Counted from the first letter of the stretch, positions 1 through 24,395 are shown. The stretch is 28,275 bases of DNA from Chlamydiia bacterium (GCA_963804085.1 CAWDOQ010000001.1:1-28275), one strand, 5' to 3'. Made by a program: numbers and translations. Notes: a model not told the origin generated them from the sequence alone.

Positions 1-606
1 GGGTTTGTCGCCTGCTTTAATGCGGCATAGTGTGGCGTCGAGGGAGCCAATCTTCCGCTGAATGATCGCGAGGCGTGCGTCGATCTCTTCTTGTGCTTTT
101 TCCGGTGAGCTTCCGCATATAAAGCTTGCTACAGAGCTGCGATATGTTGAGAGACAGTAGCGTCTCATATCATTTTCTAGCTCTTGCGATTCTGTGTCGA
201 TTTCGCCGAGCTGCAAGAGGATCCTATATTGTTCTTTTTCTGGAATATCTATTTGAAAAGCGTTTGCAAGCTGCGCTAACTGAATATTTTCTTGATGCGG
301 GGTAAGCGCTCTGGGTGGAACGGAGGCGTATTGGGCGCTTAGCTGCCTTTCTCTAAACAATTGATGAACGCAGTAAGCCACCGCTCCTACACCCGCAGAA
401 TAAATGCCTATCGCAAGAGTTACACCTTTGGAGAGCAGTGAAAAGCCGCCTCCTACTGCTGCACCTTTAAGACAAGCCGTGAATGAGTTAAGTTCGTCCG
501 ATTCCGGTAAATAGACTCCGGGTTTTCCTCTCTCGCTACCCTCTAAATATATTTTCATGGAGCTGGAATAGTCCCCTACTCCGAGAGACATGGAATATAA
601 AGTCAT
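1..606 (-). CDS. Hypothetical membrane/coiled-coil protein, Inc-like (inclusion-membrane/T3SS substrate candidate); runs off the window edge
   Basis: Not in the ORF track because there is no stop in the window. ATG at 606 follows AAGGAGG. The frame is open for 202 codons (MTLYSMSLGVGDYSSS...KAGDKP). It has a Gly/Ala-rich bilobed hydrophobic stretch (AAVGGGFSLLSKGVTLAIGIYSAGVGAVAYCV) followed by Q/E/L-rich helical segments. Confidence 0.75.
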   Translation of the reverse strand, partial: MTLYSMSLGVGDYSSSMKIYLEGSERGKPGVYLPESDELNSFTACLKGAAVGGGFSLLSKGVTLAIGIYSAGVGAVAYCVHQLFRERQLSAQYASVPPRALTPHQENIQLAQLANAFQIDIPEKEQYRILLQLGEIDTESQELENDMRRYCLSTYRSSVASFICGSSPEKAQEEIDARLAIIQRKIGSLDATLCRIKAGDKP

Positions 607-2074: not shown

Positions 2075-2894
2075 CTTTTGTCCACCTTGCAAAGCTGCCT
2101 GACGGCAGCTCTCTTGCGCCAGGATTTTCAGGGACATCTCGCCGATCTCGATCTTCCCTTTTTTTAAGCGCTCTTCTAAGAGATGACGCATCACAAGTGG
2201 CGTGATGCCTTGCGTGTGAGAAGAGAGAATTAAAAAGAGGGGCTTATCTGAAAGTATCTTGCAGCACTTATCGAGTATCAGATTTAAGTCGCGTTCGATT
2301 TTAAACACTTCGCCCTGCTTGCCTCTACCAAAGCTGGGAGGATCCAGAATGATCCCATCATAGCGCACGCCGCGCTTCTCTTCGCGCATAAGGAACTTGA
2401 TCACATCATCTACGATCCAGCGAATAGGCGCCCCTTCTAAGCCGTTTAGTGCGGCATTCTCTCTTGCCCACTTGACCATCCCTTGAGAGGCATCGAGATG
2501 GCAGACAGAGGCGCCCGCCTTTGCAGCGGCAAGCGTCGCTCCTCCCGAATAGGCAAAGAGATTCAAGATTTTTGGGGGCTCCTTCTCTTTCTTTATCAGA
2601 CCTTCCATCCACTCCCACAAGGCGCTATGTTCGGGAAAGAGCCCCAAATGGCCAAAGTCGGTTGCAGAGATTTTAAACTTGAGTCCTTTTAATTCGGCGA
2701 TCCAAGAGTCTGGAAGCGCGCGTTTTCCCCGCCACTTATTATTTCCCTCGTCACGTGTAAAAAGAGCGTGCGCTCCGTTCCACACCTCTGGCCCAAGCGC
2801 CGGACGCCAGAGCGCCTGGCCGCACGGCCGGACTAGGAGAAATCGCAAACTGCTCGAGCTGCTGCCCATCGCCGCTGTCTAAAAGTTTATACAT
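2064..2894 (-). CDS. Class I SAM-dependent methyltransferase, RlmI/RlmK-like (apparent frameshifts near both ends)
   Basis: The start MYKLLDSGDGQQLEQF is at 2894 in another frame. The core has FGHLGLFPEH, ILNLFAYSGGAT, HLDAS and YDGIILDPPSFGRG. The likely true end [14 protein letters not shown] is in a shifted frame. The ORF-track fusion to the TrmH N-terminus results from the frameshift. Confidence 0.88.
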
Positions 2895-2949
2895 GGTGGT
2901 CGACCAGTAAATAATTAATTTGTCCAAAGAATCATAGCAGGTTCACTAT

Positions 2950-4167
2950 TTAAATGCCGTAAGAGATCCGGCGCCAAAGAGTAGATAGAACGCGGTGGGT
3001 CGTTCCCAGGAGAACCGCTGCTCGATTGCCTTTTATCTCAAAGGTAAAGAGATAGGGGGTCTTGCCCCTCTCGCCGACGGCTGCCCAGATCGTTCCTACG
3101 GGATGCTCGGGGCTGCCTCCGCTTGGGCCCGCAACTCCCGATACCGCTATCCCATAATCCGCATGAGTGGCTTTAAAAAGTCCTTTTAACATCTCTTCGA
3201 CCACCTCTGAGCTGACAGCTCCTTTTTCTTTTAAACTCTTTTCTGGAACAGAAAGGAGGGAGTGCTTGAGTGCATTCGAATAAGAAACGATAGAGCCTAG
3301 AAAATATTGAGAGGCACCTGCAAGAGCAGTTAGATGAGCTGCAATTTTGCCGCCTGTGCACGACTCTGCAAGGGCAAGTGTCCTTTTCTTTTCGATCAAA
3401 AAGTTGTGCAGCGCCTCTTCGATCTTTCCGGAAGTGGAGGGAAAAACATGCGTTTTAAATTCCGTTTTAAGCGCATCAGCTAGCAGCATGACCTCTTGCT
3501 TTTCTTCTCCTGAAAAACTAACACTTACGAGTCCCTTATTCGGATAGATGCCAATCTTAACCGCAGGCGATTTTTTCTTGAGCTCGCGCAAAACGAGGTC
3601 GACCTCGCTTTCGGTAATTAAACAGAGATGGACATTTTCTACATGACGCTTCTCTTTTGCCGGAAGATGCTTGGCAAGGTAAGGCAGAAGCTCTTTTGTG
3701 CACATCTCTTCCATCTCGTAGGGAACACCCGGAAGCAGGATGAGAAACCCCTTTTCAGTCCGAAAGACAAGCCCTACTGCTGTGCCGACAGAGTTGGAAA
3801 GAATCTCTGCTTTTCGAGGAACTTTTGCCTGATTCTCTAAAGAGAGCAGATTTTTTCCATACCTCTTTTTAAGATCGGCTGCGAGCTTCTCATCGAAGTG
3901 ATAATCATCGTTAAAAATTGCTACGGCGACATCTCGCGTATGGTCATCCAAGGTGGGTCCAAGCCCGCCTGTTGCAATGACAAGCTCCGCTCTTTTGATT
4001 GCTTGTTCTAACCCTTCGCGCAAATGCTTTGGCTCGTCAGCAAGCGTCGTCATCTTTGTGACTTGGTAACCCGCTTGCATCAGCTGTTTACTTAAAAAGG
4101 CTGCGTTGGAGTTAAGAATGGCTCCCGATAAGATCTCATCGCCGATGGTAACAAGTTCGATGTTCAA
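2950..4167 (-). CDS. cinA: CinA / nicotinamide-nucleotide amidohydrolase (MoCF-like domain + PncC domain)
   Basis: IGDEILSGAILNSNA, TGGLGPTLDDHTR, LPGVPYEM; C-terminal LAESCTGG, SYSN, GAVS, SGVAGPSGGS. Confidence 0.95.
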   Translation of the reverse strand: MNIELVTIGDEILSGAILNSNAAFLSKQLMQAGYQVTKMTTLADEPKHLREGLEQAIKRAELVIATGGLGPTLDDHTRDVAVAIFNDDYHFDEKLAADLKKRYGKNLLSLENQAKVPRKAEILSNSVGTAVGLVFRTEKGFLILLPGVPYEMEEMCTKELLPYLAKHLPAKEKRHVENVHLCLITESEVDLVLRELKKKSPAVKIGIYPNKGLVSVSFSGEEKQEVMLLADALKTEFKTHVFPSTSGKIEEALHNFLIEKKRTLALAESCTGGKIAAHLTALAGASQYFLGSIVSYSNALKHSLLSVPEKSLKEKGAVSSEVVEEMLKGLFKATHADYGIAVSGVAGPSGGSPEHPVGTIWAAVGERGKTPYLFTFEIKGNRAAVLLGTTHRVLSTLWRRISYGI

Positions 4168-6219: not shown

Positions 6220-6274
6220 ATTTTGATGCTTTATCTATCTCCAGCATTTTTTAAAAGAATTTATTTAAGCAAAA

Positions 6275-6361
6275 CGGAGGAGGTGGGATTCGAACCCACG
6301 AAACGTTTTCACGTTTACACGCTTTCCAAGCGTGCTCCATCGGCCACTCGGACACTCCTCC
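6275..6361 (-). tRNA. tRNA-Ser(GGA)
   Basis: The reverse complement folds as a cloverleaf: acceptor GGAGGAG/CTCCTCC, anticodon arm CACGC-TTGGAAA-GCGTG, long variable arm, T arm GTGGG-TTCGAAT-CCCAC, discriminator G. CCA is not encoded. Confidence 0.97.
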
Positions 6362-6436
6362 AAAAATTAATAGACTGGGAAAGATTAGCCGACTTTTTCT
6401 TTAATCACAAGCCACAAGACCCGAAGACTTTTTTTC

Positions 6437-6597: not shown

Positions 6598-7689
6598 CTA
6601 GCGTAGCAAAAGGGCATGCTTTTTGCCCAAGCAGTAGGAGCGGGCTTTGTTAGAAAAATTGACAATCTCCAAAAAGCCCTGATCAACCCATTTTTTACAA
6701 AGTTGCGCTGCTGTGCGCGGTTTAAATTTAAACAGCGCTCCAATCTGATGTGCAGTGACAAGCTCGAACTGATAAAAGAGTTCTAAGACTTGTCTCTGTT
6801 TCGGGTCGAGTTTGCGAAAAAGCTCGGCTTGATCATGCTCCCCTCTTTGATCTGCAATGAGCATCCCCTTCAACACACTCTCAAAAGAGAAGGCCATCCC
6901 TTCTATGAAATACTCGATCCATCGAGTGATATCACTTTCTGCTCTTCCAAGATAGTAATTATGCGAGGGTCCGATTGTTAGTGCCGCATAGTAGGCATGA
7001 AGATCTCGCGCGTAATACTCTTCCAAAGAGTAGAGGCCTTTTAGATCGAAGCCACCGAGATGCAAAACAAAGGTTGCGAGGAGTCGCGCACATCTCCCGT
7101 TCCCGTCGTAGTAAGGATGAATAGTTGCAAATTGGTAATGTGCAATTGCGGCTATGATCGGACAAGGAAGTTCAGCGCTTTGAGAGATCCACTGCACAAG
7201 GCCGTGTATGAGACCTGGAACATCTTTTGCTTCGGGAGGCATGTACACGATCGCTTTCGTCATACTGTCTCGGATCACATTTTGGCCGTCTCGGTAAGGT
7301 GTCGGTGTCACTTTTGACCTGCCATCTCCCATAACTAACGCATGCAGAGTGCGAATCTGCGTTTCGGTTACACCCACCTTTTCTGCAATCCATAATTCCA
7401 TCTGTTTGAGAGCTGCGAAGTATCCTTTAACCTCTTTTTCATCTCGTTCGCGCCCTGCAAAGTGCTTATCCTGTTTGATGACCTCTGCAATTTCCTCTGC
7501 ACCCAAGCGATTCCCTTCGATCATGGTGGAATAGTGAGTGGTGTAAAGGCGCGCCGTCTCTCGCAAGGAGGCGATCACCATCGGCGTGAGCGGCAGATGC
7601 AAAATCTGTTGCTTTGCCGCCTCGATGCGCAAGAGGCAGCTAGCAATCTTTGGCGAGATCGTAAACTTGGGCGTGAAATTTATCAGCAT
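6598..7689 (-). CDS. Fic-family protein (AMPylase-type motif) with C-terminal winged-helix domain
   Basis: HPYYDGNGRCAR matches HxFx(D/E)GNGRxxR. STMIEGN resembles the inhibitory-helix motif. C-terminal LDPKQRQVL...VTAHQIGALF...AAQLCKKWVDQGFL is wHTH-like. Confidence 0.92.
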   Translation of the reverse strand: MLINFTPKFTISPKIASCLLRIEAAKQQILHLPLTPMVIASLRETARLYTTHYSTMIEGNRLGAEEIAEVIKQDKHFAGRERDEKEVKGYFAALKQMELWIAEKVGVTETQIRTLHALVMGDGRSKVTPTPYRDGQNVIRDSMTKAIVYMPPEAKDVPGLIHGLVQWISQSAELPCPIIAAIAHYQFATIHPYYDGNGRCARLLATFVLHLGGFDLKGLYSLEEYYARDLHAYYAALTIGPSHNYYLGRAESDITRWIEYFIEGMAFSFESVLKGMLIADQRGEHDQAELFRKLDPKQRQVLELFYQFELVTAHQIGALFKFKPRTAAQLCKKWVDQGFLEIVNFSNKARSYCLGKKHALLLR

Positions 7690-7741
7690 AATATCAGCAT
7701 GTTATCTGCATAGAATTATGCCGATAAATCGCCGATAAATC
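7677..7741. promoter_or_regulatory. Putative autoregulatory operator array over the fic start
   Basis: TATC(A/T)GCAT at 7681, 7692 and 7703, and inverted copies (ATGCCGATA 7718, TCGCCGATA 7729). Each set has an exact 11-bp period. Confidence 0.6.
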
Positions 7742-7848
7742 AACTTTAAATCGCACCTCGCTTAAGATCAATGAGTTGCGAATAGATTGCAAAACATAAA
7801 AACGCAACCAGCTGAATATCAGTTTATTGCGCGATTTTCGCGTACATT

Positions 7849-7884
7849 CGTTCATTTTTTGTGATAAATGACAAAAAATGAACG
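7849..7884. repeat. Perfect 14-bp inverted repeat (operator or hairpin)
   Basis: CGTTCATTTTTTGT (7849-7862) / ACAAAAAATGAACG (7871-7884), 8-nt spacer. Confidence 0.6.
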
Positions 7885-8011
7885 TATTTTTGTGAAAAAA
7901 TCACGTTTTCCTAACATATCGTTTGTCATCGCATAAAAAGAGAAGATGCGACTATGGAAGAGCATTTCCTCAAAGCTTTCGATCATGGTAGCTAGTGAAA
8001 ACTAACCATTT

Positions 8012-8948
8012 TTAACGCCGGCGCTCGTGTGAGTGGTAGAGATAGCCACCATTTTGCATGTTGCCAAAGACATAGCGTGACCAAATATTCGGCTTTGATG
8101 GAAACCCAGATATCGCCATATTTTTAATGAAAACCTCGATCCGGATAGAACTATCAAAGAGCTCAACATGCTGTTTAAAAAAAGCTCCATCGGGCCATGC
8201 GCACAAGCTGGAAGCACAAAATCGGTCAAGTAGCAGCCTAAGTGTTTTGCGAAAGAAACGTGATCGTCTGTCCGACCAGTATTGTAGGGTAAGCTGACAA
8301 AGGACGGGACAAAGGTGGGACTCGCTCGAACATGCTCATCAATCTCGCTGGGAGCCAGTGTCTATTTGTTCTGGCGTTCGCGAGCTTGAAATGTTTGATA
8401 TTGGGGTTTCGGTCCATGCTGGAAAAAAGAGCATTTAAGATCGAAGGGATTTTGGAGGACAAAATCGTGCTGATGCAAGAAAACATAAGGCGTAGTCACT
8501 CGCAAATCATCGCCTCTTTGACAACTCCTGCCAAATGGACCCATTTTTCACAAAAGATGAGCTCAGTATTGGACACAAAATAGAGCGGGGTCTGATTTTA
8601 GTGCAGTGCTCCGATATTTTCTTGGATGCATATAGCACCGTTTAATCTTCTACACGATCTTCAAGACCCGGTTGGATCCCATCAAACACAAGTGATCTTT
8701 TTACAAAAAGTAAAAGCGGGAACGAGAAACAAACAATTACGGGCAGGATAGAGATGCTTGGATCGAGGAAGGATGCTGAACTGGATTGGTCGTCGTGATA
8801 ACACCGTGATTCATCTCAGCCACCGTCGCAGCATCATAGACTTTTCCATCCAATAGATCTGCGAAGCCATGAAAGCGCTGCAGGCTGTTAACCCCCACAA
8901 GCAAATTTGCCCATGAAGGAGTGGTATACTATCATGACTCTTTTTCAT
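8012..8948 (-). pseudogene. Heavily frameshifted gene for a GT-A-fold-like protein
   Basis: GAAGGAG precedes the ATG at 8948. Protein-like segments follow in changing frames: ITTTNP, VFDGIQPG, SNTELIFCEKWVHLAGVVKEAM, VTTPYVFLHQHDFVL, NALFSSMDRNPNIKH, DFVLPACAHGPME, YVFGNMQNGGYLYHSH. QHD sits at a DxD-like position. Confidence 0.6.
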
Positions 8949-9145
8949 AAAATGCTCCTTCAGTAAAGATATAAACCATAAGCACCAATTCATTATTAAT
9001 CTTATAGGTAAAATTCGAAAAACCCAACGATTTACCTTTAACCATCTTATGAGTTAATTACGTAATTACAAATTAACGCAACTGTTTACTAATAAATGTT
9101 TTAAATCTAAAATAAAGAAAATTATCAATTTGCTGGAATTACATT

Positions 9146-10165
9146 TTGAAACGGAAAAATTTAAAGTTATTAAAACTCTGCATTTATTCTACAGCTGTTG
9201 TAGGCGTAATTTTTCTGTTAATTCCAAATTCATTAAAAAATGACATAAGTCGCTTATTCAACAATCAACACAAAACGAAAAAGAAAAAGACAAGTTCTTT
9301 CAAAAACACGCAAAACTCATCGAACCAAAATTTCTTCGCAAGAAAAGACCCACCTTCCAATCCCATTCTTTATCCACTACCCCAGCTACTCGACTTCCGC
9401 CATGTCCAGGGGTCGGGCGAAGGGATTGGCTTTGGCACCGACTACTCTACCGTTGCATTGCTCCTGGCACCCGACTGCGCGCTGGGAAGAGCAATGCCGC
9501 TAATAGATCTAAGAGTGCACCATTTTGACAACAATACTTACGCTGCAAATGCAGGCGTCGGCTTTAGATACATCCCCTCTCCAAATACTTTTTGTGAAAT
9601 TTTAGGAGCCAACGTCTTTTATGACTTCCGTCAAGGCAGGATGGGAAATTACCATCAACTGGGAGCGGGCATCGAAATTTTGGGAAAGAGATGGGAGTTC
9701 CGCGCCAACGGCTACTTTCCTATCGGCATTAAAAGTCATAAGACAAAATGCACATTCGATCATTACGAAGGGGGATTTTTTGCCATTCATCGCAGGTGCG
9801 AATTTACTGCCTATGGCTACAACGCAGAAGCAGGTTATTACATAATCAACAGAAACGATTTCTCTCTTTATGCAGCAGGTGGCCCCTACTATCTTCTGCG
9901 AAGGTGTGAAGACAACACGCTAGGCGGCGAAGTGAGAATACGCCCTCAGTATAAAGATTATCTCGCGCTTGAATTCAAAGCGAGTTACGACCCTGTCTTC
10001 AAAGCTGTCTACCAAGTCGGTATCACGATCCGCCTTCCTCTCTATCAGATCAGGAATAGAGGATGCAGACCCTGCGGCATGCAATCGCGCCAAGTCTATC
10101 AACCGATCGAACGGTTCGAGATCATGCCTCTCGGCAGGCGCTCTTGCTGGGAAAGAAACTTCTAG
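9146..10165 (+). CDS. Inverse autotransporter beta-domain protein (intimin/invasin-type barrel), no passenger
   Basis: AANAGVGFRY, LGANVFYD, HQLGAGIE and WEFRANGYFPI are intimin-barrel strand motifs. There is an N-terminal hydrophobic anchor and a TTG start. Confidence 0.82.
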   Translation: MKRKNLKLLKLCIYSTAVVGVIFLLIPNSLKNDISRLFNNQHKTKKKKTSSFKNTQNSSNQNFFARKDPPSNPILYPLPQLLDFRHVQGSGEGIGFGTDYSTVALLLAPDCALGRAMPLIDLRVHHFDNNTYAANAGVGFRYIPSPNTFCEILGANVFYDFRQGRMGNYHQLGAGIEILGKRWEFRANGYFPIGIKSHKTKCTFDHYEGGFFAIHRRCEFTAYGYNAEAGYYIINRNDFSLYAAGGPYYLLRRCEDNTLGGEVRIRPQYKDYLALEFKASYDPVFKAVYQVGITIRLPLYQIRNRGCRPCGMQSRQVYQPIERFEIMPLGRRSCWERNF

Positions 10166-10220: not shown

Positions 10221-11552
10221 TTGAGGGCAAAAAGGTTGCGTATCTTACCTCTGTTTTTCTTAAACATCTCTCTTCCTTCTGCAATCCTTGCAAACCAGGC
10301 AGATTTTTCGACCGCGATAAAAATCGTACGAGAGAAGTCTGTTCAGAAGGAGTTTAAAGAAAGGTCTGAGGCTCTTGAACAGTTATTGGAAGGTCTTGAA
10401 AAAGAGCCCGAACAGCAAGTTGTAATCGTTGAAACGAAACCACCCCCTACCGAACTTCTTGCCGAAGAAAAGGATCCCGAAAAAGAAGAATCGGAAGAAC
10501 TTTTCGCATTAGAGGATGAACTACTTGAATGGCAGGAAGAAAAGCTGCGCGCCCTAAGCCAGATCGAGTCCTACCCAGTCGAAATAGAAGAGGAACCCTG
10601 GACTGATGCATTCGCAGCTGAAGAGGAGCATGCCCCGCCTCTTGCCGAAGAAGTACAAGCTCCAGTTGCAGTTATTGCGGCCGAAGAGAGCCCGCCTGCT
10701 CAAAAAAGCAACGCCCCAATTGCCTACTCTAGCGATTCAAAGCCCAATCTCTACCCGATTCCTAAACGGATAGATGTGCGCCACAACCAAGGGTTTAATC
10801 AGAGAAGCAACTTTGGAACCGACTATACAACAGTCGCCATGCTCCTTGCATCTGATTATGTCCAAGGAAGCGTGATGCCGATGATCGACCTACGAGCGCA
10901 CCACTTTGACAACAACAGATATGCTGCAAATGTTGGTGTAGGCGGTAGGTACATCCCCCACACAGACACATTTTGCGAACTTTTGGGATTCAACGCTTAT
11001 TACGATTATCGACAAGGAGTGCAAGGCCATTACAACCAGGTCGGACTTGGAATTGAAGTTCTCGGGAAAAGATGGGAATTTCGTGCCAATGCCTACTTCC
11101 CGATCGGCATAAAGAGACATAAGACAAAATGCGAATTCAGAGATTTTTCAGGAGGCTTTTTTGCAGTTAACCGCAGATGCGAATTCACCGCTTATGGCTA
11201 CAACGCAGAGGTAGGCTACTATCCGATCAACGGACACACCTTCTCTCTGTACACAGCGATTGGCCCCTACTACCTTCTCCGTAGATGCGAGCACGACACG
11301 CTAGGCGGCCTTGCCCGCGCACGCGCTCAATATCGCGATTATCTAGCTTTGGAAGGTCGCGTAAGCTACGACCCCGTCTTTAAAACGGTGTATCAACTGA
11401 TCGTGCTCTTCCGTCTTCCGCTCTATCAGATCTTCACGCAGAAAAACAGAAAGACTCCTTGCGGCATGTTCGAAAGGCAAGTCTATCAACCGGTTGAACG
11501 CTTCGAAATCATGCCTCTTGGCAGACGCTCTTGCTGGGAACGAAACTTTTAG
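10221..11552 (+). CDS. Inverse autotransporter beta-domain protein with acidic N-terminal extension, no passenger
   Basis: Signal peptide, Glu-rich region of about 140 aa, then AANVGVGGRY, LGFNAYYD, QVGLGIE and WEFRANAYFPI. The C-terminus ERFEIMPLGRRSCWERNF is identical to the upstream paralog. Confidence 0.82.
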   Translation: MRAKRLRILPLFFLNISLPSAILANQADFSTAIKIVREKSVQKEFKERSEALEQLLEGLEKEPEQQVVIVETKPPPTELLAEEKDPEKEESEELFALEDELLEWQEEKLRALSQIESYPVEIEEEPWTDAFAAEEEHAPPLAEEVQAPVAVIAAEESPPAQKSNAPIAYSSDSKPNLYPIPKRIDVRHNQGFNQRSNFGTDYTTVAMLLASDYVQGSVMPMIDLRAHHFDNNRYAANVGVGGRYIPHTDTFCELLGFNAYYDYRQGVQGHYNQVGLGIEVLGKRWEFRANAYFPIGIKRHKTKCEFRDFSGGFFAVNRRCEFTAYGYNAEVGYYPINGHTFSLYTAIGPYYLLRRCEHDTLGGLARARAQYRDYLALEGRVSYDPVFKTVYQLIVLFRLPLYQIFTQKNRKTPCGMFERQVYQPVERFEIMPLGRRSCWERNF

Positions 11553-12985
11553 ACAACAGGCCTATTGAGAAGATCTATCGTCTCTTGTAGATTGCCATTG
11601 CTGAGCACCTCATCCGCTTTCAAATCTCTTGAGTTTTCGTCTCCGATAACAAAGAGATGGTCGATACCCTTAGACTTTTTGGAATAGGGATCGATATTTG
11701 TCTGCCAAGGAGAGTGTATGCTAAAGTCGGTAAATCCCGCTTTTCGATACGCGTCTATCATCTCGTCTCTTTCGAAATTGTTATCGCCGAGAGCTACTGT
11801 GATAGCATCTTCTTGATGATGCTCATAGGTGTATTTGGCAAACTCTTCCCGGCCAGGTTTTGTTGGGTCTCCGGGGATGTGCGCATTGATGATGCGCAGG
11901 TCGCGGCCAGATTGATGAGAAAAAAAGGCATTTTGCAGAGGGCGATTCGGAACACTTGGATAGGCACTGCTTGTGGTTTCCGATCGCTCCGCACAGTAGG
12001 CCAACTGCGTTTTATCGTAAAGAATCACATCCTGGTCTTCTCTTCCATCAGGAAAGCTTTTGACAAGGTCCCAATGCGCCGGAACGCGCGCTTCTAGATG
12101 CTTTAGAAAAGGAGCACCACACTCTTGGAGCGCTACAATCTGACCCTTGGACATCATGTTTTGCACTAAGTCTGCCACCACAATATCTCGCAAAGTCAGG
12201 CCATCTTCTTGTACAACGACATCCAATTGAGAGATCATAGAGCCGTTTAGCCCTTGTGAATCCTTATCAGTCACCCATTCCATGTAAGCGTTATTGAGCA
12301 CATTCCAGCTGATGATGCGCACCCCATTTACCTCGATGCCAACAGGCAAGTGATCCGATGGAAATCTCCATTTTTCATGCAGTTCGCCTACGCAGATCTT
12401 CTTTATCGCAGCTTCGATCTCCCAATTTCTCTTGAGCTGCTGGTACTGCGTATGCACTTGTTGGAGGCGAACACCCGCCATCAGAAGATTTGAACACCCT
12501 TCGATCCAACGGCCTTGCTTAAATTCATCCTTCGACTGCAGGAGATTGATCACCATCTGCAATGCAAATGCGACAATCGAAAGCTCCAAGCCCCCTAACG
12601 TGAGGAGTGAAAGATAGACCATATCATTTAGGATTTTAACTAAAGATGTAGCGGCATCTTCCCAATTGTCCTGCTTCACAAGTTTTTGTATCTCGAGGAG
12701 AAGATCATGGCCCGTTGTGATAACCATACCGGCTCGGTGTTGCAAGAGAGTACCCACTAAAGAGGCCACGGAAACGGCTGTTTGAAAAATATCATTGTGA
12801 TCCGCATTCCAAACGCGCAAGGAGCCCATGGCTATAGAGACGGGAAGCCTGAGAGTAGAGCTTAAGCTTAAAAAAGGAACAGTTGCCAAAGCAACGCGCT
12901 TGTAGAGTTCGGTTTGCTGGGGCGCATCATTAGAATATTCTCGCGTATAAAGAACATTTTTATAATCTGATACTCTTGCTGTCAT
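11549..12985 (-). CDS. Hydrophobic N-terminal domain fused to an endonuclease/exonuclease/phosphatase (EEP) domain
   Basis: EEP motifs IISWNVLN, VALQE, IINAH, LGDNN, GIDHLFV and PSDHLPV. The N-terminal ~185 aa have several hydrophobic helices and no signal peptide. GAGGAG RBS. Confidence 0.85.
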   Translation of the reverse strand: MTARVSDYKNVLYTREYSNDAPQQTELYKRVALATVPFLSLSSTLRLPVSIAMGSLRVWNADHNDIFQTAVSVASLVGTLLQHRAGMVITTGHDLLLEIQKLVKQDNWEDAATSLVKILNDMVYLSLLTLGGLELSIVAFALQMVINLLQSKDEFKQGRWIEGCSNLLMAGVRLQQVHTQYQQLKRNWEIEAAIKKICVGELHEKWRFPSDHLPVGIEVNGVRIISWNVLNNAYMEWVTDKDSQGLNGSMISQLDVVVQEDGLTLRDIVVADLVQNMMSKGQIVALQECGAPFLKHLEARVPAHWDLVKSFPDGREDQDVILYDKTQLAYCAERSETTSSAYPSVPNRPLQNAFFSHQSGRDLRIINAHIPGDPTKPGREEFAKYTYEHHQEDAITVALGDNNFERDEMIDAYRKAGFTDFSIHSPWQTNIDPYSKKSKGIDHLFVIGDENSRDLKADEVLSNGNLQETIDLLNRPVV

Positions 12986-13159: not shown

Positions 13160-13267
13160 AAAGAGTTAAAACAGGATGGGCAGGATAAGCAAGATGAAGA
13201 AAGAATCCTGTTTTAGATCATTCTCTTTCTTATCCTGTCTATCCTGCCCATCCTGTTTTAACTCTTT
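13160..13267. repeat. Long REP-like palindrome with 9-bp CAGGAT units
   Basis: Perfect 28-bp inverted repeat AAAGAGTTAAAACAGGATGGGCAGGATA (13160-13187) / TATCCTGCCCATCCTGTTTTAACTCTTT (13240-13267), with imperfect inward extension. Confidence 0.85.
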
Positions 13268-14102
13268 TTCTTTCTTATTCTGTCGCTTGGCATCCTGTAG
13301 AAATTCTTCTGTATTAATTTTTTATCCAGTACGGAGACCGATTTCACTGCAAAAGAGAAGGGGGAGATTATTCACTATCGTTCTGGGCGGATTACTTGCT
13401 GTATCTCCATTGAATGCTGTCTCGACCAGAGATTCAGATTTGGGAGGAAAATTAGAGCTGGGGATGTCCCAAGAGCCTTTATTTGTCAGTCTGGGTTCGG
13501 TTTGTGAAACGGCTCATATGCATAGAGAATGCGGCATTAGAAAAGCAGCTTTCCCTTTTGATTGGATTGTTTCTTTTGATGGAGAAAAACTGATTGAGCT
13601 TTTGGAGGAGGATTTTCTCCATTTCTTGAATCCTCACTTCCTAAGAGTTGCAGGAGCATCCCTTCTAAATGATTACTATCACCTGGAATTCCTCAATGAA
13701 GGAGACTGGGAAGATGCTGCTTATAAAATAGAAGAATTTACGAAGAAGTGTAATAGAAGAATCGATCGATTTAGACAACTAGGCAATTACGGGGGAAAAG
13801 TTTTTTTTGTAAGAACGGCATATCGCTATTCTCTTACGGATCCTCACCGCATCTGGAAAAATGAAGAGAACGTTTGGATCAGCCATGAATATGCAGAAAG
13901 GCTTTACAAGACGCTCAAGAATTACTTCCCTGACTTGGATTTTGACTTGGTGATTATCAATTTGCGAGACGGGACGGGTTTTGAAGTGGAGAAGTCTTCC
14001 GATCATCTTTTAATGGTAAAAATAGGGTGTATGATGATCGATTCTTATAAGGATTTTTACTCTCAATTGCTTATGGAAAGGGGCCTAAAATCCCCCCAAT
14101 GA
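13176..14102 (+). CDS. DUF1796-family putative papain-like cysteine peptidase (true start probably downstream, about 13350-13464)
   Basis: FVSLGSVCETA...RKAAFPFDW...RRIDRF...VFFVR. The first ~30 codons are translated palindrome. LFTIVLGGLLAVSPLNA looks like a signal peptide. Confidence 0.78.
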   Translation: MGRISKMKKESCFRSFSFLSCLSCPSCFNSFSFLFCRLASCRNSSVLIFYPVRRPISLQKRRGRLFTIVLGGLLAVSPLNAVSTRDSDLGGKLELGMSQEPLFVSLGSVCETAHMHRECGIRKAAFPFDWIVSFDGEKLIELLEEDFLHFLNPHFLRVAGASLLNDYYHLEFLNEGDWEDAAYKIEEFTKKCNRRIDRFRQLGNYGGKVFFVRTAYRYSLTDPHRIWKNEENVWISHEYAERLYKTLKNYFPDLDFDLVIINLRDGTGFEVEKSSDHLLMVKIGCMMIDSYKDFYSQLLMERGLKSPQ

Positions 14103-15052
14103 ACCTATCCCGATATTTCATTCTTCTTATTCTATCTGTAACAATGTGTTACTCCTTCTTAAACGGAGAAAATTATCCTTCCCGGTTTGAAGGCCGTTTT
14201 GCAGCATGGAAACAAAAGCGACTAGAATTCCTCTCCCTCTTTCTTCCTGCAAACTCTGTTGTTCTTCAAGCCGGAGGATATTATGGAGCTGAGACCCTTG
14301 ATTTTGCAGATCGCTGGCCGCAAGGCAAAATCATCTCATTTGAACCCAATCCGCATGCTTTTGAGATCCTTTCGTCCAAAACAGCAAATTTCGATAACAT
14401 TGCGGTTTACAACCTTGCCTTGAGCGATTCTTCTCGAATGAGTCCTTTTTATGTTTGTTATGGCTCCTCAGGTAGCGACGTTGTTTTTGAGCATGCAAGC
14501 TCTTTACTTTTGCCTTCTTCGTGTATGAAGGTCCATTATCAGGGGCCATGCATTAATGTTGAGTGCACCGTGCTTGATGAATGGTGTAGCCAAAACAAAA
14601 TCGATCATATTGATTTCATGTGTTTGAATTTACAAGGAGCAGAACTTCAAGCTTTGAAAAGTTCTCCTGAAATATTAAAAAACACAACATGCATCGCTGT
14701 TCACACCCATTTTTTCCCATTTCGCGTTGGAACCACACAATACCCGGCATTGAAAAGCTTTCTCGAGCATTCCGGCTTCCAACTTCTAGCGCATTGGTAC
14801 AGAGAAGGGTTGGATGGAGATGCAATTTTCGTAAAAAACGACTATTTTTTTAATAGAGAAAAAGAGAAATTCTTAAAACACAACAAGATCGACGGTGCAT
14901 ATAGAAGATATTACGAGCCTTTCTTTAAAGTGTACTACGATTTAGATGATTTAGACGATGGAGACTCACTTAAAACATGTCTTAAAAAGGGGCTACCCTA
15001 CGAAGGCAATATTGGAATCATAATCGATCGCCTGACAAATCTACTGCAATGA
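14099..15052 (+). CDS. FkbM-family methyltransferase with signal peptide
   Basis: VLQAGGYYG, ISFEPNP, YNLALSD, SSLL, TVLDEW, IDFMCLNLQGAE; signal MNLSRYFILLILSVTMCYSFLNG. Confidence 0.85.
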   Translation: MNLSRYFILLILSVTMCYSFLNGENYPSRFEGRFAAWKQKRLEFLSLFLPANSVVLQAGGYYGAETLDFADRWPQGKIISFEPNPHAFEILSSKTANFDNIAVYNLALSDSSRMSPFYVCYGSSGSDVVFEHASSLLLPSSCMKVHYQGPCINVECTVLDEWCSQNKIDHIDFMCLNLQGAELQALKSSPEILKNTTCIAVHTHFFPFRVGTTQYPALKSFLEHSGFQLLAHWYREGLDGDAIFVKNDYFFNREKEKFLKHNKIDGAYRRYYEPFFKVYYDLDDLDDGDSLKTCLKKGLPYEGNIGIIIDRLTNLLQ

Positions 15053-15151
15053 TTTCATAGCATTTCCTGTTGAATTAAACGCCGATCTGGCAAAATTCAA
15101 AAACAATTTCCGAAAACTTGATTTAAATCATTTTGAAATAGGACTGCAAAA

Positions 15152-15989
15152 ATGAAAAAGTTCTTACTTCCTCTTGATCTTGCTGTTGAACACAACGCCG
15201 CAAATAGCACAAACGAGCGAAATTCGTACTGCCGATGATATTACCTATGAATGGCTGACAACTGTTGGTGCCGCCACAGGTTACACCGATCACATCATCC
15301 ATTTTCAAAAACTATTCCAAGTTATGAAAGTGCGTACGTTTCTTGAATTTGGATTGGGCTTTTCCACAAAATACTTTTTAGACTCGAGCAAGAAGGTTAT
15401 CTCGGTGGAATTTATCACCAACGGATATGGCCCAGAGTGGATGAAAAGCTGTATTGATCTTTATCGGGACTACCCAAATTGGATTCCCATCGCTTACTTT
15501 TCAGGCTTTCCGAAAGATACGAATTGGGCTCCTTACAAGTATTTGGGATCGGAGCATGTTTACAAGGCCGGATCTTACCAGTGCGCTACTCATAAAAACT
15601 ATGCTCTTATCGATAAGTTTTATCTAACCGAACTCGATGCATTTATCACTAATTGCGTCAAAACAAATAAGATCGATGTGGCGTTCGTGGATTCGGGATT
15701 GTATCTGCGAGGTGATCTTGTCCAGCTCTTATTTGGCAAAGTTCCTGTAATTCTAGCTCATGATACGCGATGCCGAGACATGGGAATGCAAGATGACGTA
15801 TACGGCTACTCTCGAATTGTCACACCTGAAGATTATGAAGAGATTTTCATCTCTTCAGGGCAGGGGACTACTGTCTGGATCAAAAGAAGTGATCAGTACA
15901 GAGAAGTGGCAGCTGAGCTTAAAACTTATGCTGAAAACATAAGAAAAGTTACACTCAATTTGCTTCTCTTTTTTTCTGTTTTTTCTTAG
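15152..15989 (+). CDS. Class I SAM-methyltransferase-fold protein (apparent frameshift in the signal peptide)
   Basis: FLEFGLGFST, VISVE, DVAFVD and ILAHD motifs. The ATG at 15152 (MKKFLL) is out of frame with LILLLNTT..., which suggests a 1-nt indel. Paralogous to the C-terminal domain of 20034-22253. Confidence 0.72.
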
Positions 15990-16004
15990 CATCGACTTTC
16001 GCTT

Positions 16005-16935
16005 ATGACACTACGACATTTCTTTCTCCTATTCGCGCTCTCTCTACATGCTCTTCAAGCAGATGTCCAAGACTACTTTAAGAAGGTCCCGGACAAATCG
16101 GGCTTTCATCAGATGAAAAACATCGATTTCATCTACACAATCAATCTCGATCAAAGACCTGAAAAATTTGCAACTTGTACAAAGCAGCTGAACGTTTATG
16201 GTATCTACCCATGTCGTTTTTCTGCAGTAAATGGCTGGGAGCTCTCTTTAGAAACGATCAACGACTTAGGGGTTAAATATGCACCTTGGATGACGAACGG
16301 ACAATGGAGCACCTGGTACCCGATCGAGGGAGATGGTAAACCCCAGCATGAGATCGTGCACGAAATTGGAAGAACCTATTTTTGCCACTGCATGGCACGC
16401 GGTCCGATCGGTATTGTCTTAAGCCATCTTTCTGTTTTGCAAGATGCCTATGACTCTGGTTATGAGACTATTTGGGTGATGGAAGATGATATTGAGATCA
16501 TTCGCAATCCCCATATTCTTTCGAACCTGATCGAACAGCTCGATTCTCTCGTTGGAAAAGAAGGATGGGACATCTTGTTTACTGATCGTGATACAAAAAA
16601 CAATAATGGGCAATACGTGCCTTGTACCTCTTACGCATGGAGACCCAATTTTGCACCAACGGATCCCTATCGCTTTGGAAAAACGCGTGAGGTCAGTGCA
16701 GACTTAAGGCAGATCGGAGCACGTTACGGCGCCTACTCTATGATCGTGCGAAGATCGGGGATGAAAAAGCTTTTGCACTTCTTTAAAAAGTATGATGTCT
16801 TTCCTCCCCTTCGATATGGAGTTTGCTTTTCCTAATGATATGCACTTGTTTACTGTTACGAGCGATGTCGTCTCGACAAAGCCGGGATCACCTTCAGATA
16901 ATGGCGCACCTAATTACAAAAACCCAAGACCTTAA
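16005..16935 (+). CDS. Glycosyltransferase family 25 protein with signal peptide (frameshift near 16800)
   Basis: IYTINLDQRPEK, RFSAVNG, GPIGIVLSH, IWVMEDD. The tail LPFDMEFAFP...DVVS...PSDNGAPNY continues in another frame to TAA 16935, matching both paralogs. Confidence 0.85.
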
Positions 16936-16940
16936 GACAA

Positions 16941-17639
16941 ATGGATTATTACAATCACAATCCCCAGACTGAATCGCACTATGAATACGTTATAAACCGC
17001 AAAGAATCTTTGGTTATTTCTCCCGAACAAGCCAAACAACAAGCCTTCGTTGCTATGAGTCAATTGGAAGGGTGGTGTTCGCAAGAAAAAGCCTCTCTTC
17101 TCATGGATCTTATTTTCGCAAGCAAACCAAAAACACTTGTCGAAATAGGCGTATTCGGAGGTAAGTCACTTATCCCAATGGCCTACGCTTTAAAAGCAAA
17201 TGAGCAAGGGAAAATTTACGGAATCGATCCTTGGGAAAGTAGCGCCTCGATCGAAGGTGCCGCAAATCAAGCCAACAAAGAGTGGTGGAGTGCTCTAAAT
17301 CACGAAGCGATTAGGCAAGGTCTTGTAAATAAGATTAAACTCTTCGCCTTGGAAAAAGAGATAGAATTGATCAAAAGCAGCTCCGCTGATGCAGTGCCTA
17401 TCTCTGAGATCGACCTGCTTCATATCGATGGAAACCACTCGGATGCCACCTCTTATCTCGACGTGACAAAATGGGTGCCTTTGGTCGCAAGTGGCGGATG
17501 GATCGTATTTGACGATCTAACCTGGCATGAAAATGGTGTCTATACAACTGCGCGTGCAGTTGAATGGCTCAATGCAAATTGCATTAAGTTTGCTGAGTTC
17601 ACCGATTCTTGTACTTGGGGAGTCTGGATAAAACCATGA
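16941..17639 (+). CDS. Class I SAM-dependent methyltransferase (Methyltransf_24-like), no signal peptide
   Basis: GWCS.EKA, VEIGVFGGKS, GIDPW, DLLHIDGNH, GGWIVFDD. Confidence 0.88.
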   Translation: MDYYNHNPQTESHYEYVINRKESLVISPEQAKQQAFVAMSQLEGWCSQEKASLLMDLIFASKPKTLVEIGVFGGKSLIPMAYALKANEQGKIYGIDPWESSASIEGAANQANKEWWSALNHEAIRQGLVNKIKLFALEKEIELIKSSSADAVPISEIDLLHIDGNHSDATSYLDVTKWVPLVASGGWIVFDDLTWHENGVYTTARAVEWLNANCIKFAEFTDSCTWGVWIKP

Positions 17640-18307
17640 GAACGCTTCTCCTCTGTTTATGTTTTTTAGCTTCCTCTCTTCATGCCAATTCTGAAGTGGA
17701 AAAGTTAAAGCAGCGCGTCTTACTCGTACTTCCTACTCTGCAAGGCTGGTGCTCCAAAGAAAAAGCGATCAACTTTATCGATCTAGTCCTGGAAACCAAG
17801 CCGCGCGTTTGCGTAGAAATCGGGGTGTTCGGAGGCTCCTCAGTTTTTCCGGTCGCCTCGACGCTGAAGTTTTTAGGGCAAGGGGTCATCATCGGCATCG
17901 ATCCTTGGGATAAACTAGAATGCATTAAGTATTTCGATCCTGAAGAAGACAAAGCCCACTTAGAGTGGTGGGGAAAGGTCAACATGGATCACATCTACAT
18001 CTCCTACTTAAACATGATAAAAAGGCATGGATTGATCGACTACTGTTTGACGATGCGATCTACCTCTGAAGAAGCAGCTTCTGAAATCGACAGCATCGAT
18101 ATTTTGTATATCGATGGCAATCACAACGAAGCTGTCTCTACCAAAGACGTGACGCTCTATCTACCCAAAGTCAAAAAGGGTGGCTACATCTGGTTGGACG
18201 ATGCGTTATGGACGGGCACACAGCAGGCGGTCGATCTACTTTTAGTCTCTTGCGATGTCGTCAAGTTAATAGATAGTGGAAATTGCATTTTATTTAGAAA
18301 AAGATAG
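17636..18307 (+). CDS. Class I SAM-dependent methyltransferase (Methyltransf_24-like) with signal peptide
   Basis: Start at MRTLLLCLCFLASSLHA (17636); GWCS.EKA, VEIGVFGGSS, GIDPW, DILYIDGNH, GGYIWLDD. Tandem paralog of the previous gene. Confidence 0.88.
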   Translation: MRTLLLCLCFLASSLHANSEVEKLKQRVLLVLPTLQGWCSKEKAINFIDLVLETKPRVCVEIGVFGGSSVFPVASTLKFLGQGVIIGIDPWDKLECIKYFDPEEDKAHLEWWGKVNMDHIYISYLNMIKRHGLIDYCLTMRSTSEEAASEIDSIDILYIDGNHNEAVSTKDVTLYLPKVKKGGYIWLDDALWTGTQQAVDLLLVSCDVVKLIDSGNCILFRKR

Positions 18308-18319
18308 CCGAGTGAAGCC

Positions 18320-19087
18320 ATGTTGAAAAAAATCCCTTTTCTTATCCTAGCAGTCTTTTTGTGCTCTTTTACTGATCCGATCGATTTAAGCCAAAACGAT
18401 AGAGGGCTCTATAGTTTACATGGAGAAGATGGTATTCTTCAGAAAATTTTTACTCTGATCAAACCTATTTCTTGCTGCTGTGTGGAACTCGGGGTAAATC
18501 CAGGAATGCGCGGAAACATCTCTCCCCTCCTCGCAAAACAAAAATGGGATTGCATCTTGCTGGACAGGATACAAGGGGTTCCGGATTGCAATATCTATAA
18601 AGAATTCATCACAAGCGAGAACATCAACACTCTGCTTGCCAAATACGCAACGCCATCAGATTTAGACATCTTGTGCATCAACGTCGATTATAACAACTTT
18701 CATTTCTGGAAGGCGATTGATTCGCACTATCGTCCTCAGGTTGTGGTTATCGAATATAACGCTACCCACCTCCCATCTGTTGATAAGGTCGTAAAATACC
18801 GCCCCTATTTTTGCGGAGATGGCAGCAACTATTATGGCGCGAGCATTCTTTCTCTCTACCACTTGGGGAGAGCGAAGGGTTACTCTCTCATCTACGTTGA
18901 GAAGACGGGCTCCACCCTCTTTTTTCTTCGCGATGATCTTATTAAAGAGTACAACCTCGTGTTTAAAGATATGAATGACGTGGAGAAAATCTACCGCTAC
19001 CCCGCATATGGGAATGGACCCAATGGAGGAGCGCGTCAAGATAGACACAACCGCGAATATATAACATCTATGGATCTACTAAATTAA
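18320..19087 (+). CDS. FkbM/Methyltransf_21-related conserved protein with signal peptide
   Basis: YSLHGEDGIL, CVELG, EFITSENIN, DILCINVDYNN..W, RPQVVVIEYN, YYGAS...GY.LIY. Confidence 0.65.
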   Translation: MLKKIPFLILAVFLCSFTDPIDLSQNDRGLYSLHGEDGILQKIFTLIKPISCCCVELGVNPGMRGNISPLLAKQKWDCILLDRIQGVPDCNIYKEFITSENINTLLAKYATPSDLDILCINVDYNNFHFWKAIDSHYRPQVVVIEYNATHLPSVDKVVKYRPYFCGDGSNYYGASILSLYHLGRAKGYSLIYVEKTGSTLFFLRDDLIKEYNLVFKDMNDVEKIYRYPAYGNGPNGGARQDRHNREYITSMDLLN

Positions 19088-19091
19088 AGAT

Positions 19092-20033
19092 ATGCGTATT
19101 GGACAATTTTTCTCTTTTATGGTGATGGTTCTTGCGGCCTCTTTTGTGTCCGCAGATCTTGAAGAGCATTTGAAAAAAGTCGGGGATAAATCGGGTATGC
19201 ACACGATGCGGAATATCGACTTTATCTACATCATCAACCTCGATCAAAGACCTGAAAAACTTAAAAGTTCCCTAGATCAACTAGCGCCTTTCGGGATCTA
19301 TCCTTGTCGATTTTCTGCTGTCAATGGGTGGGAGCTCAGTTTAGAAGCGGTAAACGATATAGGGCTTAAGTTCTCTCAGGAAATGGAGGGGGGATTCATG
19401 GGGACCTGTTACCACGTAGGCGGCGAGGGCGAACCAAGCCATGAAACGATCTGCATTTATGGCCAAACCTATTTTTGCCACTGTCTTGCGCGTGGCGCGA
19501 TCGGTTGTACTTTAAGCCATCTCTCTGTTCTACAAGATGCTTATGACTCGGGGTATGAAACGGTCTGGATCATGGAGGATGATATCGATGTGATAAGCGA
19601 TCCTAGAATTTTATCTGATCTCATAGACAAACTCGATACTTTGGTCGGCAAAAATAATTGGGATGTATTGTTCACAGACCGCGACATCAGAGATGCAAAC
19701 GGAAATCCTAAAGCCTGCTATTGGGCAGCCAAGCGCCCCGATTTTGTCGCTTTTTCGTACAAGAACAATTATGCTGCAAGAGCAGATGTCAGCCCGGATT
19801 TTTGTAAAATTGGTGCGCGTTGGGGCTCTCATTCGATGATCCTGCGAAGAAGCGGCATCCAAAAACTTTTGCAGTTTTTTAAAGCACACGATATTTTTTT
19901 CCCTTACGACATGGATTACATCTTTCCGCCTGGCATCAAGCTTTATGCCGTAAGAAACGATGTTGTTTCCAATTCACCTAAAGCTCCTTCTGACAATGGT
20001 GGTCCCAACTATCTCAACAAACAATCACAGTAA
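19092..20033 (+). CDS. Glycosyltransferase family 25 protein with signal peptide
   Basis: IYIINLDQRPEK, RFSAVNG, GAIGCTLSH, WIMEDD, PYD. Confidence 0.88.
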   Translation: MRIGQFFSFMVMVLAASFVSADLEEHLKKVGDKSGMHTMRNIDFIYIINLDQRPEKLKSSLDQLAPFGIYPCRFSAVNGWELSLEAVNDIGLKFSQEMEGGFMGTCYHVGGEGEPSHETICIYGQTYFCHCLARGAIGCTLSHLSVLQDAYDSGYETVWIMEDDIDVISDPRILSDLIDKLDTLVGKNNWDVLFTDRDIRDANGNPKACYWAAKRPDFVAFSYKNNYAARADVSPDFCKIGARWGSHSMILRRSGIQKLLQFFKAHDIFFPYDMDYIFPPGIKLYAVRNDVVSNSPKAPSDNGGPNYLNKQSQ

Positions 20034-24390: not shown

Positions 24391-24395
24391 AACCC

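Follow-up and report, generated by a model that had tools for sequence, protein, structure and literature searches.

The endonuclease/exonuclease/phosphatase (EEP) fold is among the best-studied catalytic scaffolds, and it is found in DNase I, APE1, CCR4, the sphingomyelinases, and the 5-phosphatases. The EEP catalytic set consists of an Asn (in the WN motif), a Glu (QE), a His (NxH), an Asp/Asn pair (GDxN), an Asp (IDx), and an Asp-His pair (SDH), and to our knowledge the strand that carries SDH is the final element in every EEP described. Here, we analysed a 28,275-nucleotide stretch of DNA from a Chlamydiia bacterium (GCA_963804085.1, CAWDOQ010000001.1:1-28275; hereafter the window), in which one gene on the minus strand (11549..12985) very likely encodes an N-terminal helical module (hereafter the N-module) followed by a circularly permuted EEP domain. 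The predicted fold and the full motif set of this protein (hereafter the query) are shared with the EEP superfamily (PF03372, including DNase I, ExoIII/APE1, CCR4, sphingomyelinases, and inositol 5-phosphatases). In contrast to that superfamily, where the SDH strand is last, the SDH strand of the query comes first, a two-residue turn joins the old termini, and the protein ends after the IDH motif.

The motif order can be read directly from the translation, which includes HEKWRFPSDHLPVGIEVNGVRIISWNVLNN. Each motif was placed by coordinate within a single intact open reading frame (ORF), as had been claimed in the original prediction, which was made from the sequence alone. The tripeptide SDH has a single occurrence in the 478-residue protein, at residue 210, while the dipeptide WN occurs at residues 59 and 227. 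PSDHLPVG precedes the WN of the EEP domain and no SDH follows GIDHLFV (ORF translation, coordinate script), so the proposed SDH-first order holds; the chain stops where an ordinary EEP would go on to its SDH strand. A spacing of about 10 residues between SDH and IISWNVLN had also been suggested, and His212 was found 15 residues ahead of W227. The hexamer GAGGAG lies about 6 nucleotides 5' of the ATG start codon (coordinate script), and in our reading it is a putative ribosome-binding site.

The word-indexed homologue search returned 210 proteins at E<=1e-3, and the 120 listed ones share 73% to 36% identity with the query. Their source labels are Rhabdochlamydiaceae, Chlamydiales, and Chlamydiae metagenome-assembled genomes (MAGs), and six of them bear the JGI name 'endonuclease/exonuclease/phosphatase family metal-dependent hydrolase'. 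In an alignment of 115 sequences (37-73% identity to the query), P209, S210, D211, H212, W227, N228, and N231 are invariant, and so are Q287, E288, H369, P371, G372, G400, D401, and N403, while I441, D442, and H443 are conserved in at least 90% of the sequences. A second alignment of 27 sequences gave W206, P209, S210, D211, H212, L213, and G216 as invariant, together with W227, N228, N231, Q287, and E288. When 1.84 billion cluster representatives were searched exhaustively with a profile, 1199 matches were obtained at E<=1e-3 (425 at E<=1e-30). Thirty stand-alone domains (275-345 residues, 28-53% identical to the query domain) all carry WxxPxDH before WN, and a C-terminal SDH was present in none of them; the N of WN, the E of QE, GDxN, the D of IDH, and WxxPxDH itself are invariant in this set.

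Among 257 collected proteins, 222 match the hidden Markov model (HMM) of the domain, 203 of them end to end. The SDH motif stands at the front edge in 200 of these 203 members (197 by a strict pattern and three by eye), and an SDH in or after the tail was seen in one, at a non-homologous position. The SDH-before-WN order is therefore a family trait, as the homologue search proposed earlier had been meant to establish, and the alternative of a simply truncated gene did not hold, no homologue with a normal C-terminal SDH and without the front SDH being found among these relatives. The three full-length members with a degenerate SDH, P0143 (STH), P0157 (SDR), and P0170 (TDY), have lost WN, GDxN, and IDH too, and two of them additionally lack QE and the NxH histidine. 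The front SDH thus decays jointly with the other motifs of the site. All three proteins have kept the N-module and are likely pseudoenzymes.

A non-functional origin of the unusual order has to be weighed against this conservation. The front SDH might be left over from an upstream EEP copy that arose by tandem duplication, with the true C-terminal strand lost and the protein either inactive or using another base, such as H443. The query domain does end without SDH, tandem EEP-EEP proteins do exist (P0151 and P0165, described below), and H443 of the IDH motif is among the conserved positions given above. However, a relic would be expected to decay, whereas the SDH is kept in nearly all end-to-end members across 28-73% identity and disappears only in members whose other catalytic motifs have gone too; moreover, the permuted unit is carried whole into many architectures. 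We therefore consider such a relic very improbable.

Comparison with ordinary EEPs shows the same exchange of segments. The query by itself (P0001) matched no family in Pfam and NCBIfam scans even at E<=10, and it has no PF03372 match at the gathering threshold. A single-sequence phmmer search of the query against the PDB gave PDZ and deaminase matches only (E 0.03-1.5), which were judged to be chance, and no EEP. The profile of the 115-sequence alignment, on the other hand, matched the Bacteroides mannosyl-6-phosphatase BT3783 (4c1r_A/3mpr_A) with E values of 1.2e-4 to 1.4e-4. Profile positions 269-456 aligned to chain residues 21-229, spanning QEC, NxH, GDxN, and IDHIFV, and positions 215-226 (QFPSDHLPVGVE; FPSDHLPVGVE) aligned to chain residues 270-281 (TPSDHFPVKVE of 4c1r_A), which is the swapped order. 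A second profile, built from the stand-alone domains, matched 3l1w_A (1.2e-7), TDP2 (6.6e-6), Nocturnin (3.5e-5), and 4c1r_A (2e-4); here again the SDH piece fell after the body in the PDB chains, and it was aligned to RFPSDHFPLEAEV of 3l1w_A. With these family profiles, each catalytic position was aligned to its counterpart in 4c1r_A or 3l1w_A. BT3783 and the Enterococcus protein 3l1w are the closest solved proteins by sequence, with both the body and the SDH piece alignable, but their pieces lie in the opposite order to the query and they lack an N-terminal helical module.

PF03372 was matched at E<=0.01 by 13 of 27 family members (best 6.2e-6). In all eight cases on permuted domains, the match runs no further than profile position 202-212 of 225, while four of five normal-order domains (P0151, P0165, L088, and L091) reach the end of the profile (225). 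When the front 100 alignment columns of the family profile were moved to the back, the alignment to normal-order EEPs became collinear; HMMER still splits the re-permuted matches, because the tail of about 30 residues and the leader of about 14 residues lengthen the spacing between IDH and SDH.

An AlphaFold2 model of the query was built with the 115-sequence alignment and reached a predicted local distance difference test score (pLDDT) of 96.1 and a predicted template modelling score (pTM) of 0.90. Foldseek retrieved 124 PDB chains at E<=1e-3, and every chain among the matches listed is an EEP, with TDP2 at the top (5j3p_A, E 2.8e-8). With VIA-align, the best match was TDP2 of C. elegans (4fva_C, Z 18.7, root-mean-square deviation 2.8, 203 aligned residues), followed by human TDP2 (5ino_A, Z 18.6), PDE12 (4z2b, Z 18.6, 232 aligned), CNOT6L (18.2), Nocturnin (18.2), ANGEL2 (17.4), 4c1r_A (17.0), CdtB (16.5), human neutral sphingomyelinase (8j2f_A, 16.2), and DNase I (15.4). 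As modelled, the query domain is an EEP fold, a four-layer alpha/beta sandwich superposable on solved EEPs.

The structure aligners used are sequential and not permutation-aware, and with EEP chains their alignments begin from residue 220 of the model and break off shortly ahead of the SDH that the chain itself carries; 4c1r_A, for example, was aligned over 26..268, with its own SDH at 272-274. According to the DSSP assignment of the model, a strand at residues 215-219 is followed by a turn at 220-221 and a strand at 222-228 that ends with W227-N228, so that the SDH strand and the WN strand form a hairpin. By the register of this hairpin, H212 would face N228/V229, where the first strand reaches its catalytic end. 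The modelling proposed with the original prediction as a check of the fold thus returned an EEP with the SDH strand in the sheet as the hairpin partner of the WN strand. The placement of the moved piece next to the WN strand, with pLDDT 97-98 for residues 201-230, likewise speaks against a relic.

Normal-order relatives provided controls for the permutation. The proteins P0151 (599 residues) and P0165 (778 residues) each combine the two orders in one chain, which opens with a Sec-like leader and continues through a permuted EEP to a normal-order EEP. In the normal-order domain of P0151, HMM positions 91-227 match residues 361-492 and the SDH region of the HMM (29-39) matches residues 581-591. 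Three further normal-order EEPs (L088, L090, and L091) were reached through weak matches of the phylum search. L088 and L091 are stand-alone proteins whose SDH falls at residues 251 and 232 (PF03372 E values of 2.3e-11 and 6.5e-15, respectively). The L090 ORF (464 residues; L090:586-1980 (-)), which comes from a genome of the same taxonomic family as the source genome, joins a query-type N-module to a normal-order EEP with the motifs FNIL203, QEV249, GDFN357, IDHV396, and SDH428 (PF03372 E 2.4e-20). BLASTP aligned residues 26-241 of the query with residues 14-217 of L090 (E 7e-8), and the gap falls exactly at FPSDHLPVGIEVNG of the query. These same-phylum proteins (L088, L090, L091, and the C-terminal domains of P0151 and P0165) have the query's motifs with SDH at the C-terminal side, and L088, L090, and L091 pass the PF03372 threshold.

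Taken together, the conserved order, the swapped PDB matches, the EEP-fold model with its hairpin, and the normal-order relatives as controls support the proposed permutation. Two EEP-homologous segments appear exchanged, the old termini are joined, and the fold is predicted to be retained, so we regard the EEP domain as a true circular permutation with high confidence. Several points weigh against it. By sequence, EEP membership is carried by family profiles and not by the query alone, because the query has no EEP match in Pfam, NCBIfam, or the phmmer search of the PDB. The re-permuted profile raised scores by only 0.1-1.8 bits and gave no added statistical support. P0143, P0157, and P0170 are mutually similar and may form one clade, in which case their joint decay would be one event. 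The EEP fold is seen in a predicted rather than a solved structure, and the placement of H212 comes from the predicted hairpin and the identity of the motif. Finally, the SDH piece alone was never significant in the PDB profile alignments (i-Evalue 82 to 3.1e4), which would suit the explanation that PSDHLPVG is a chance similarity within an EEP-like fold that has an incomplete site. That explanation is contradicted by conservation: PSDHLPVG is not a chance match, because P209, S210, D211, H212, W227, and N228 are invariant in 115 sequences, and the columns are also invariant in the 30 stand-alone domains. The match furthermore spans 9-11 residues (FPSDHLPvG versus fPSDHfPv), and its position and modelled hairpin geometry are exactly as a permutation predicts. 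A chance similarity can accordingly be given almost no weight. The features that support the permuted order are collected in Table 1.

Table 1. Elements of the permuted EEP gene, with positions counted from the first letter of the window
Feature	Position	Strand	Description
Whole gene	11549..12985	(-)	single intact ORF, 478 residues plus stop codon, ATG start
N-terminal module	12401..12985	(-)	residues 1-195, seven helices
Relocated segment KICVGELHEKWRFPSDHLPVGIEV	12329..12400	(-)	residues 196-219; leader, catalytic SDH loop, and the strand that is last in ordinary EEPs
PSDHLPVG	12338..12361	(-)	residues 209-216; predicted catalytic His212 and Asp211
N220-G221 turn	12323..12328	(-)	two residues linking the old C-terminal to the old N-terminal strand (DSSP of the model)
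VRIISWNVLN	12293..12322	(-)	residues 222-231; opening strand of ordinary EEPs, predicted metal-site Asn228
LQEC	12119..12130	(-)	residues 286-289; Glu288 of the QE motif, predicted metal ligand; aligned to QEC of 4c1r_A
NAHIPGDP	11864..11887	(-)	residues 367-374; NxH motif with His369; NLHM in 4c1r_A aligns here
GDNN	11777..11788	(-)	residues 400-403; Asp401 and Asn403 of the GDxN motif; aligned to GDFN
GIDHLFV	11648..11668	(-)	residues 440-446; IDx motif with Asp442; IDHIFV in 4c1r_A aligns here
C-terminal tail	11552..11647	(-)	residues 447-478 (32 residues); strand 452-454 and helices 457-460 and 466-473 in the model; without SDH

The N-module is built in the models from helices at residues 27-39, 43-60, 66-81, 83-104, 108-130, 133-156, and 160-193/195. 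When it was modelled alone (62 sequences), a compact bundle was predicted with pLDDT 92.2 and pTM 0.83. In the exhaustive profile search, many proteins match profile positions 1-205 only and continue with other C-termini. Pfam recognised ankyrin repeats in 13 of 29 such proteins, a weak DUF3466 in two, and nothing in the remaining 14. The source genome (2.13 Mb in 24 contigs) contains one permuted EEP and four further N-module loci, located on contigs C10, C16, C19, and C22 (L003:490-2169 (-); L004:1447-3489 (+); L002:1471-2154 and 2120-3205 (+); and L005/L006). One of these paralogues has ankyrin repeats and one has pentapeptide repeats together with Peptidase_C26, while one is a separate ORF overlapping an ankyrin ORF and one is broken by a TAA stop; the split and the interrupted copies may be decaying. 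Residues P37, F38, L41, R57, D94, Y124, G131, E134, Q143, G158, and R173 are at least 90% conserved across all partner types. Judged by these comparisons, the N-module is evidently a separately evolving module, common to ankyrin-repeat proteins, pentapeptide and Peptidase_C26 proteins, and canonical-EEP proteins.

As for its fold, Foldseek gave no match to the N-module in the PDB at E<=1e-3, and a search of the ESM Atlas with residues 1-200 returned no usable match. The best VIA-align score among 48,161 chains was Z 9.7 (Snf7, PspA, and similar chains), which covers only the helical hairpin 131-196 and falls within the range of common arrangements, so no fold was assigned.

The N-terminal part had been described as an effector-like membrane domain of the kind found in chlamydial type III secretion substrates, and the two halves of that description fared differently. 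The effector-like half is supported by association, the N-module being a separate helical module that also occurs on ankyrin-repeat and other proteins. The membrane half fits less well, as the hydrophobicity is modest. In Kyte-Doolittle plots with 19-residue windows, only residues 122-151, at the tip of the helix 5/6 hairpin, reach at least 1.6 (maximum 1.86); a second hydrophobic stretch at 70-91 peaks at 1.26, and the helices hold 0-6 charged residues. In chlamydial Inc proteins, the hydrophobic domain is bilobed and spans at least about 40 residues; the query has the one stretch of about 30 residues and the weaker second one. The first 30 residues are polar, and by inspection a Sec-type leader is not evident in the query, because no 19-residue window above 1.0 starts before residue 31. 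Residues 4-6 (12968-12976) form a strand in the full-length model (pLDDT 87 for the first ten residues) and none in the model of the N-module alone (pLDDT 57), suggesting that the conserved start MTARVSDYKN may dock onto the EEP domain. Such a predicted strand is unlike a free secretion signal, and it counts against a secreted protein. On balance, there is about an even chance that the N-module is a shared targeting, anchoring, or delivery module of host-directed proteins.

According to the complete catalytic set, residues ~196-478 would form a divalent-metal-dependent phosphoesterase with ordinary EEP chemistry, as suggested by the presence of N228, E288, H369, D401/N403, D442, and D211/H212, each once. 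In the proposed arrangement, the strand carrying S210-D211-H212 is encoded first and runs through N220-G221 into the W227-N228 strand, and a short helical tail behind the IDH strand closes the chain. Mg2+ would be bound by N228 and E288, activation or stabilisation would fall to H212 in its pairing with D442, and D401/N403 together with H369 would position the phosphate. With the permutation, the ends of the domain would lie beside the catalytic His loop, so that N-terminal partners would be attached on the active-site side.

Regarding the substrate, we tentatively favour a ribose 2'/3'-phosphoester in a nucleotide or at an RNA end, although this falls short of an even chance. Three observations suggest it. 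The longest structural alignments by VIA-align (224-235 residues, to the C-terminus) are to PDE12, CNOT6L, Nocturnin, and ANGEL2. Among 20 multi-domain relatives examined, three are fused to a SpoT-like HD hydrolase, one to a 2H phosphoesterase, and one to a thioredoxin reductase. The invariant residues R266 and K439 could bind phosphate. The fused relatives with HD, 2H-SAK, thioredoxin reductase, and UCH partners are P0144, P0148, P0160, P0153, P0167, and P0139; the HD domain of P0144 matches TIGR00691 (E 6e-22), and P0167, which is known from a single contig, may be a gene-calling fusion. A cluster look-up of 10 fusion proteins returned one organism label, a 'Verrucomicrobia bacterium' MAG. 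The evidence does not point one way throughout: the Z scores of TDP2, PDE12, CNOT6L, and Nocturnin lie within 1 unit of each other, the fusions to a UCH peptidase (one) and to a second EEP (two) do not point to nucleotides, and 12 of the 20 fusion proteins have no recognised partner.

The two nearest groups by structure differ from the query in order. The CCR4/Nocturnin/PDE12/ANGEL2 clade gives the longest alignments and a significant Nocturnin profile match, and a TNI ... SKxIDH arrangement may resemble the TNYT ... KGxIDY of this clade; its motif order, however, is not permuted, and its Z scores (17.4-18.6) are tied with that of TDP2, so that placement of the query in the clade is tentative. 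TDP2, a 5'-tyrosyl DNA phosphodiesterase, is the top match of the query in both Foldseek and VIA-align, but its SDH is last, the aligned part comprises about 203-207 residues and reaches roughly to model residue 465, and nothing at the query suggests DNA repair.

The main rival for the substrate is a lipid headgroup. The permuted EEP would then be a membrane-anchored phosphodiesterase or phosphatase, similar to a sphingomyelinase or a phosphoinositide phosphatase, whose N-module, dipping into a membrane of the host or the inclusion, keeps the active site at the surface of the bilayer. The hydrophobic helix-turn-helix tip at 122-151, with the weaker stretch at 70-91, would suit this arrangement, as would the joining of the N-module about 15 residues before the catalytic His. 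The neutral sphingomyelinase nSMase2 has N-terminal membrane-dipping hairpins. Sphingomyelinases are found both in the structural comparison (8j2f_A, given above) and among the profile matches (sphingomyelinase C, E 0.018). Yet sphingomyelinases rank below TDP2, PDE12, CNOT6L, and Nocturnin by structural as well as by sequence score, and no inositol 5-phosphatase was found among the best 50 VIA-align entries. Many stand-alone permuted domains also lack the N-module and carry Sec-like leaders or HD/2H partners instead, and the helices of the predicted compact bundle hold conserved charges (R57, D94, E134, and R173). A lipid-headgroup enzyme is thus unlikely, and the ribose-phosphoester substrate remains the one we prefer.

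The distribution of the family is relevant to the role of the enzyme. A motif-seeded scan that sampled each species by one genome yielded 86 relatives. Of the 80 retained, almost all come from Chlamydiota MAGs; the labels outside the Chlamydiota are Verrucomicrobia, Bdellovibrionota (2), Aerophobetes (1), and Acidobacteriota (1). Among 300 phylum genomes scored, matches at E<=1e-10 were obtained in 54 and at E<=1e-40 in 49. Counted by genus, the figure is 46 of 166; the taxonomic family of the source genome accounts for 14 of 62 genomes, and one genus has none in 24. The distribution in the Chlamydiota is patchy, as is seen for accessory genes. No operon partner was found among 81 loci. Apart from the gene itself, the biggest clusters consist of antisense ORFs within it (12, 10, and 6 loci) and of one genuine family of neighbours, present in 6 loci. 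Ten pattern matches to the motif of the chlamydial family were obtained on viral contigs, and none was a relative by tblastn at E<=1e-3. Among sequencing runs, none of RNA was listed, and six of DNA contain a fraction of 0.05-0.13 of the sampled sequence words. There is also no link to defence systems, because PADLOC on six family members gave nothing below E 0.004.

These data bear on the possibility that the permuted EEP is a bacterial housekeeping or stress enzyme acting on the cell's own nucleotides or RNA ends, for instance in the healing of 2',3'-cyclic or 3'-phosphate ends or in alarmone turnover. The fusions to SpoT-like HD hydrolases (3/20) and to a 2H phosphoesterase (1/20) are what such an enzyme might show, and the gene is single-copy in the window with GAGGAG before its start. 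Nevertheless, an accessory, host-directed role fits better than housekeeping, because the spread is patchy (strong matches in 49/300 genomes, with the taxonomic family of the source genome at 14/62 and the well-sampled genus at 0/24), no neighbour is conserved across the 81 loci, the N-module is shared with ankyrin-repeat proteins, and one relative is fused to a UCH-type peptidase. We consider a housekeeping enzyme improbable, to about the same degree as a lipid-headgroup enzyme. A more specific and decidedly speculative extension of the host-directed role is that the protein would be a secreted effector on the host or inclusion membrane that destroys ribose-2'/3'-phosphate signals or cofactors, such as 2'-5' oligoadenylates, 2'3'-cyclic dinucleotides, or NADP(H), thereby erasing an innate-immune or metabolic signal in protist hosts, with the permutation selected for attaching targeting modules at the active-site face.

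In the window, the EEP gene stands alone. It converges on two tandem genes for inverse-autotransporter-like outer-membrane proteins and diverges from a cluster encoding DUF1796, methyltransferase, and glycosyltransferase proteins. The two convergent genes, 9146-10165 (+) and 10221-11552 (+), are tandem paralogues with a PF11924 inverse-autotransporter beta-domain (E ~1e-11) and near-identical C-terminal halves, and the second overlaps the stop of the EEP gene by 4 nucleotides, tail to tail. The divergent cluster (13176-27768 (+)) comprises a DUF1796 papain-like protein, FkbM and Methyltransf_24 methyltransferases, three GT25 proteins, one GT2/TPR protein, and a GH130-like protein; the G+C fraction is 0.38-0.40 at 13-16 kb of the window and 0.44-0.50 elsewhere. 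Upstream of the tandem pair, the interval 7690-9145 (~1.45 kb) has no ORF longer than 83 residues, no tRNA, and no Rfam match; either the remains of a decayed gene or a long spacer without coding function would fit. The gene at 6598-7689 (-), which adjoins tRNA-Ser(GGA) (6274-6362 (-)), encodes a Fic-domain protein whose C-terminal region is winged-helix-like.

In the titles and opening parts of abstracts of the papers listed (the top ones where a list was long), where the slash-written family name is not a searchable term, we found no description of a circular permutation in the EEP/DNase I-like fold, of EEP effectors in Chlamydiae, or of the permuted chlamydial family. A term search of the CIRPIN paper (PMC13552848) gave no occurrence of endonuclease, exonuclease, DNase, EEP, phosphatase, or Chlamyd.

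The permuted domain suggests that the EEP fold tolerates relocation of the strand bearing its catalytic His to the front. With hundreds of sequence clusters, many architectures, and a presence in 49 of the 300 sampled phylum genomes, the permuted unit would be an evolutionarily successful mobile domain. It also marks a blind spot in annotation, the query having no Pfam or NCBIfam match at all. The co-occurrence of the N-module with a normal-order EEP in one protein and with a permuted EEP in another offers a natural pair for comparing folding and enzyme evolution. The N-module, which has no match among solved structures, is a candidate for a new domain with which environmental chlamydiae target or anchor proteins, and if the protein were a secreted effector, the module would represent a previously unrecognised family of delivery or anchor domains in these bacteria.

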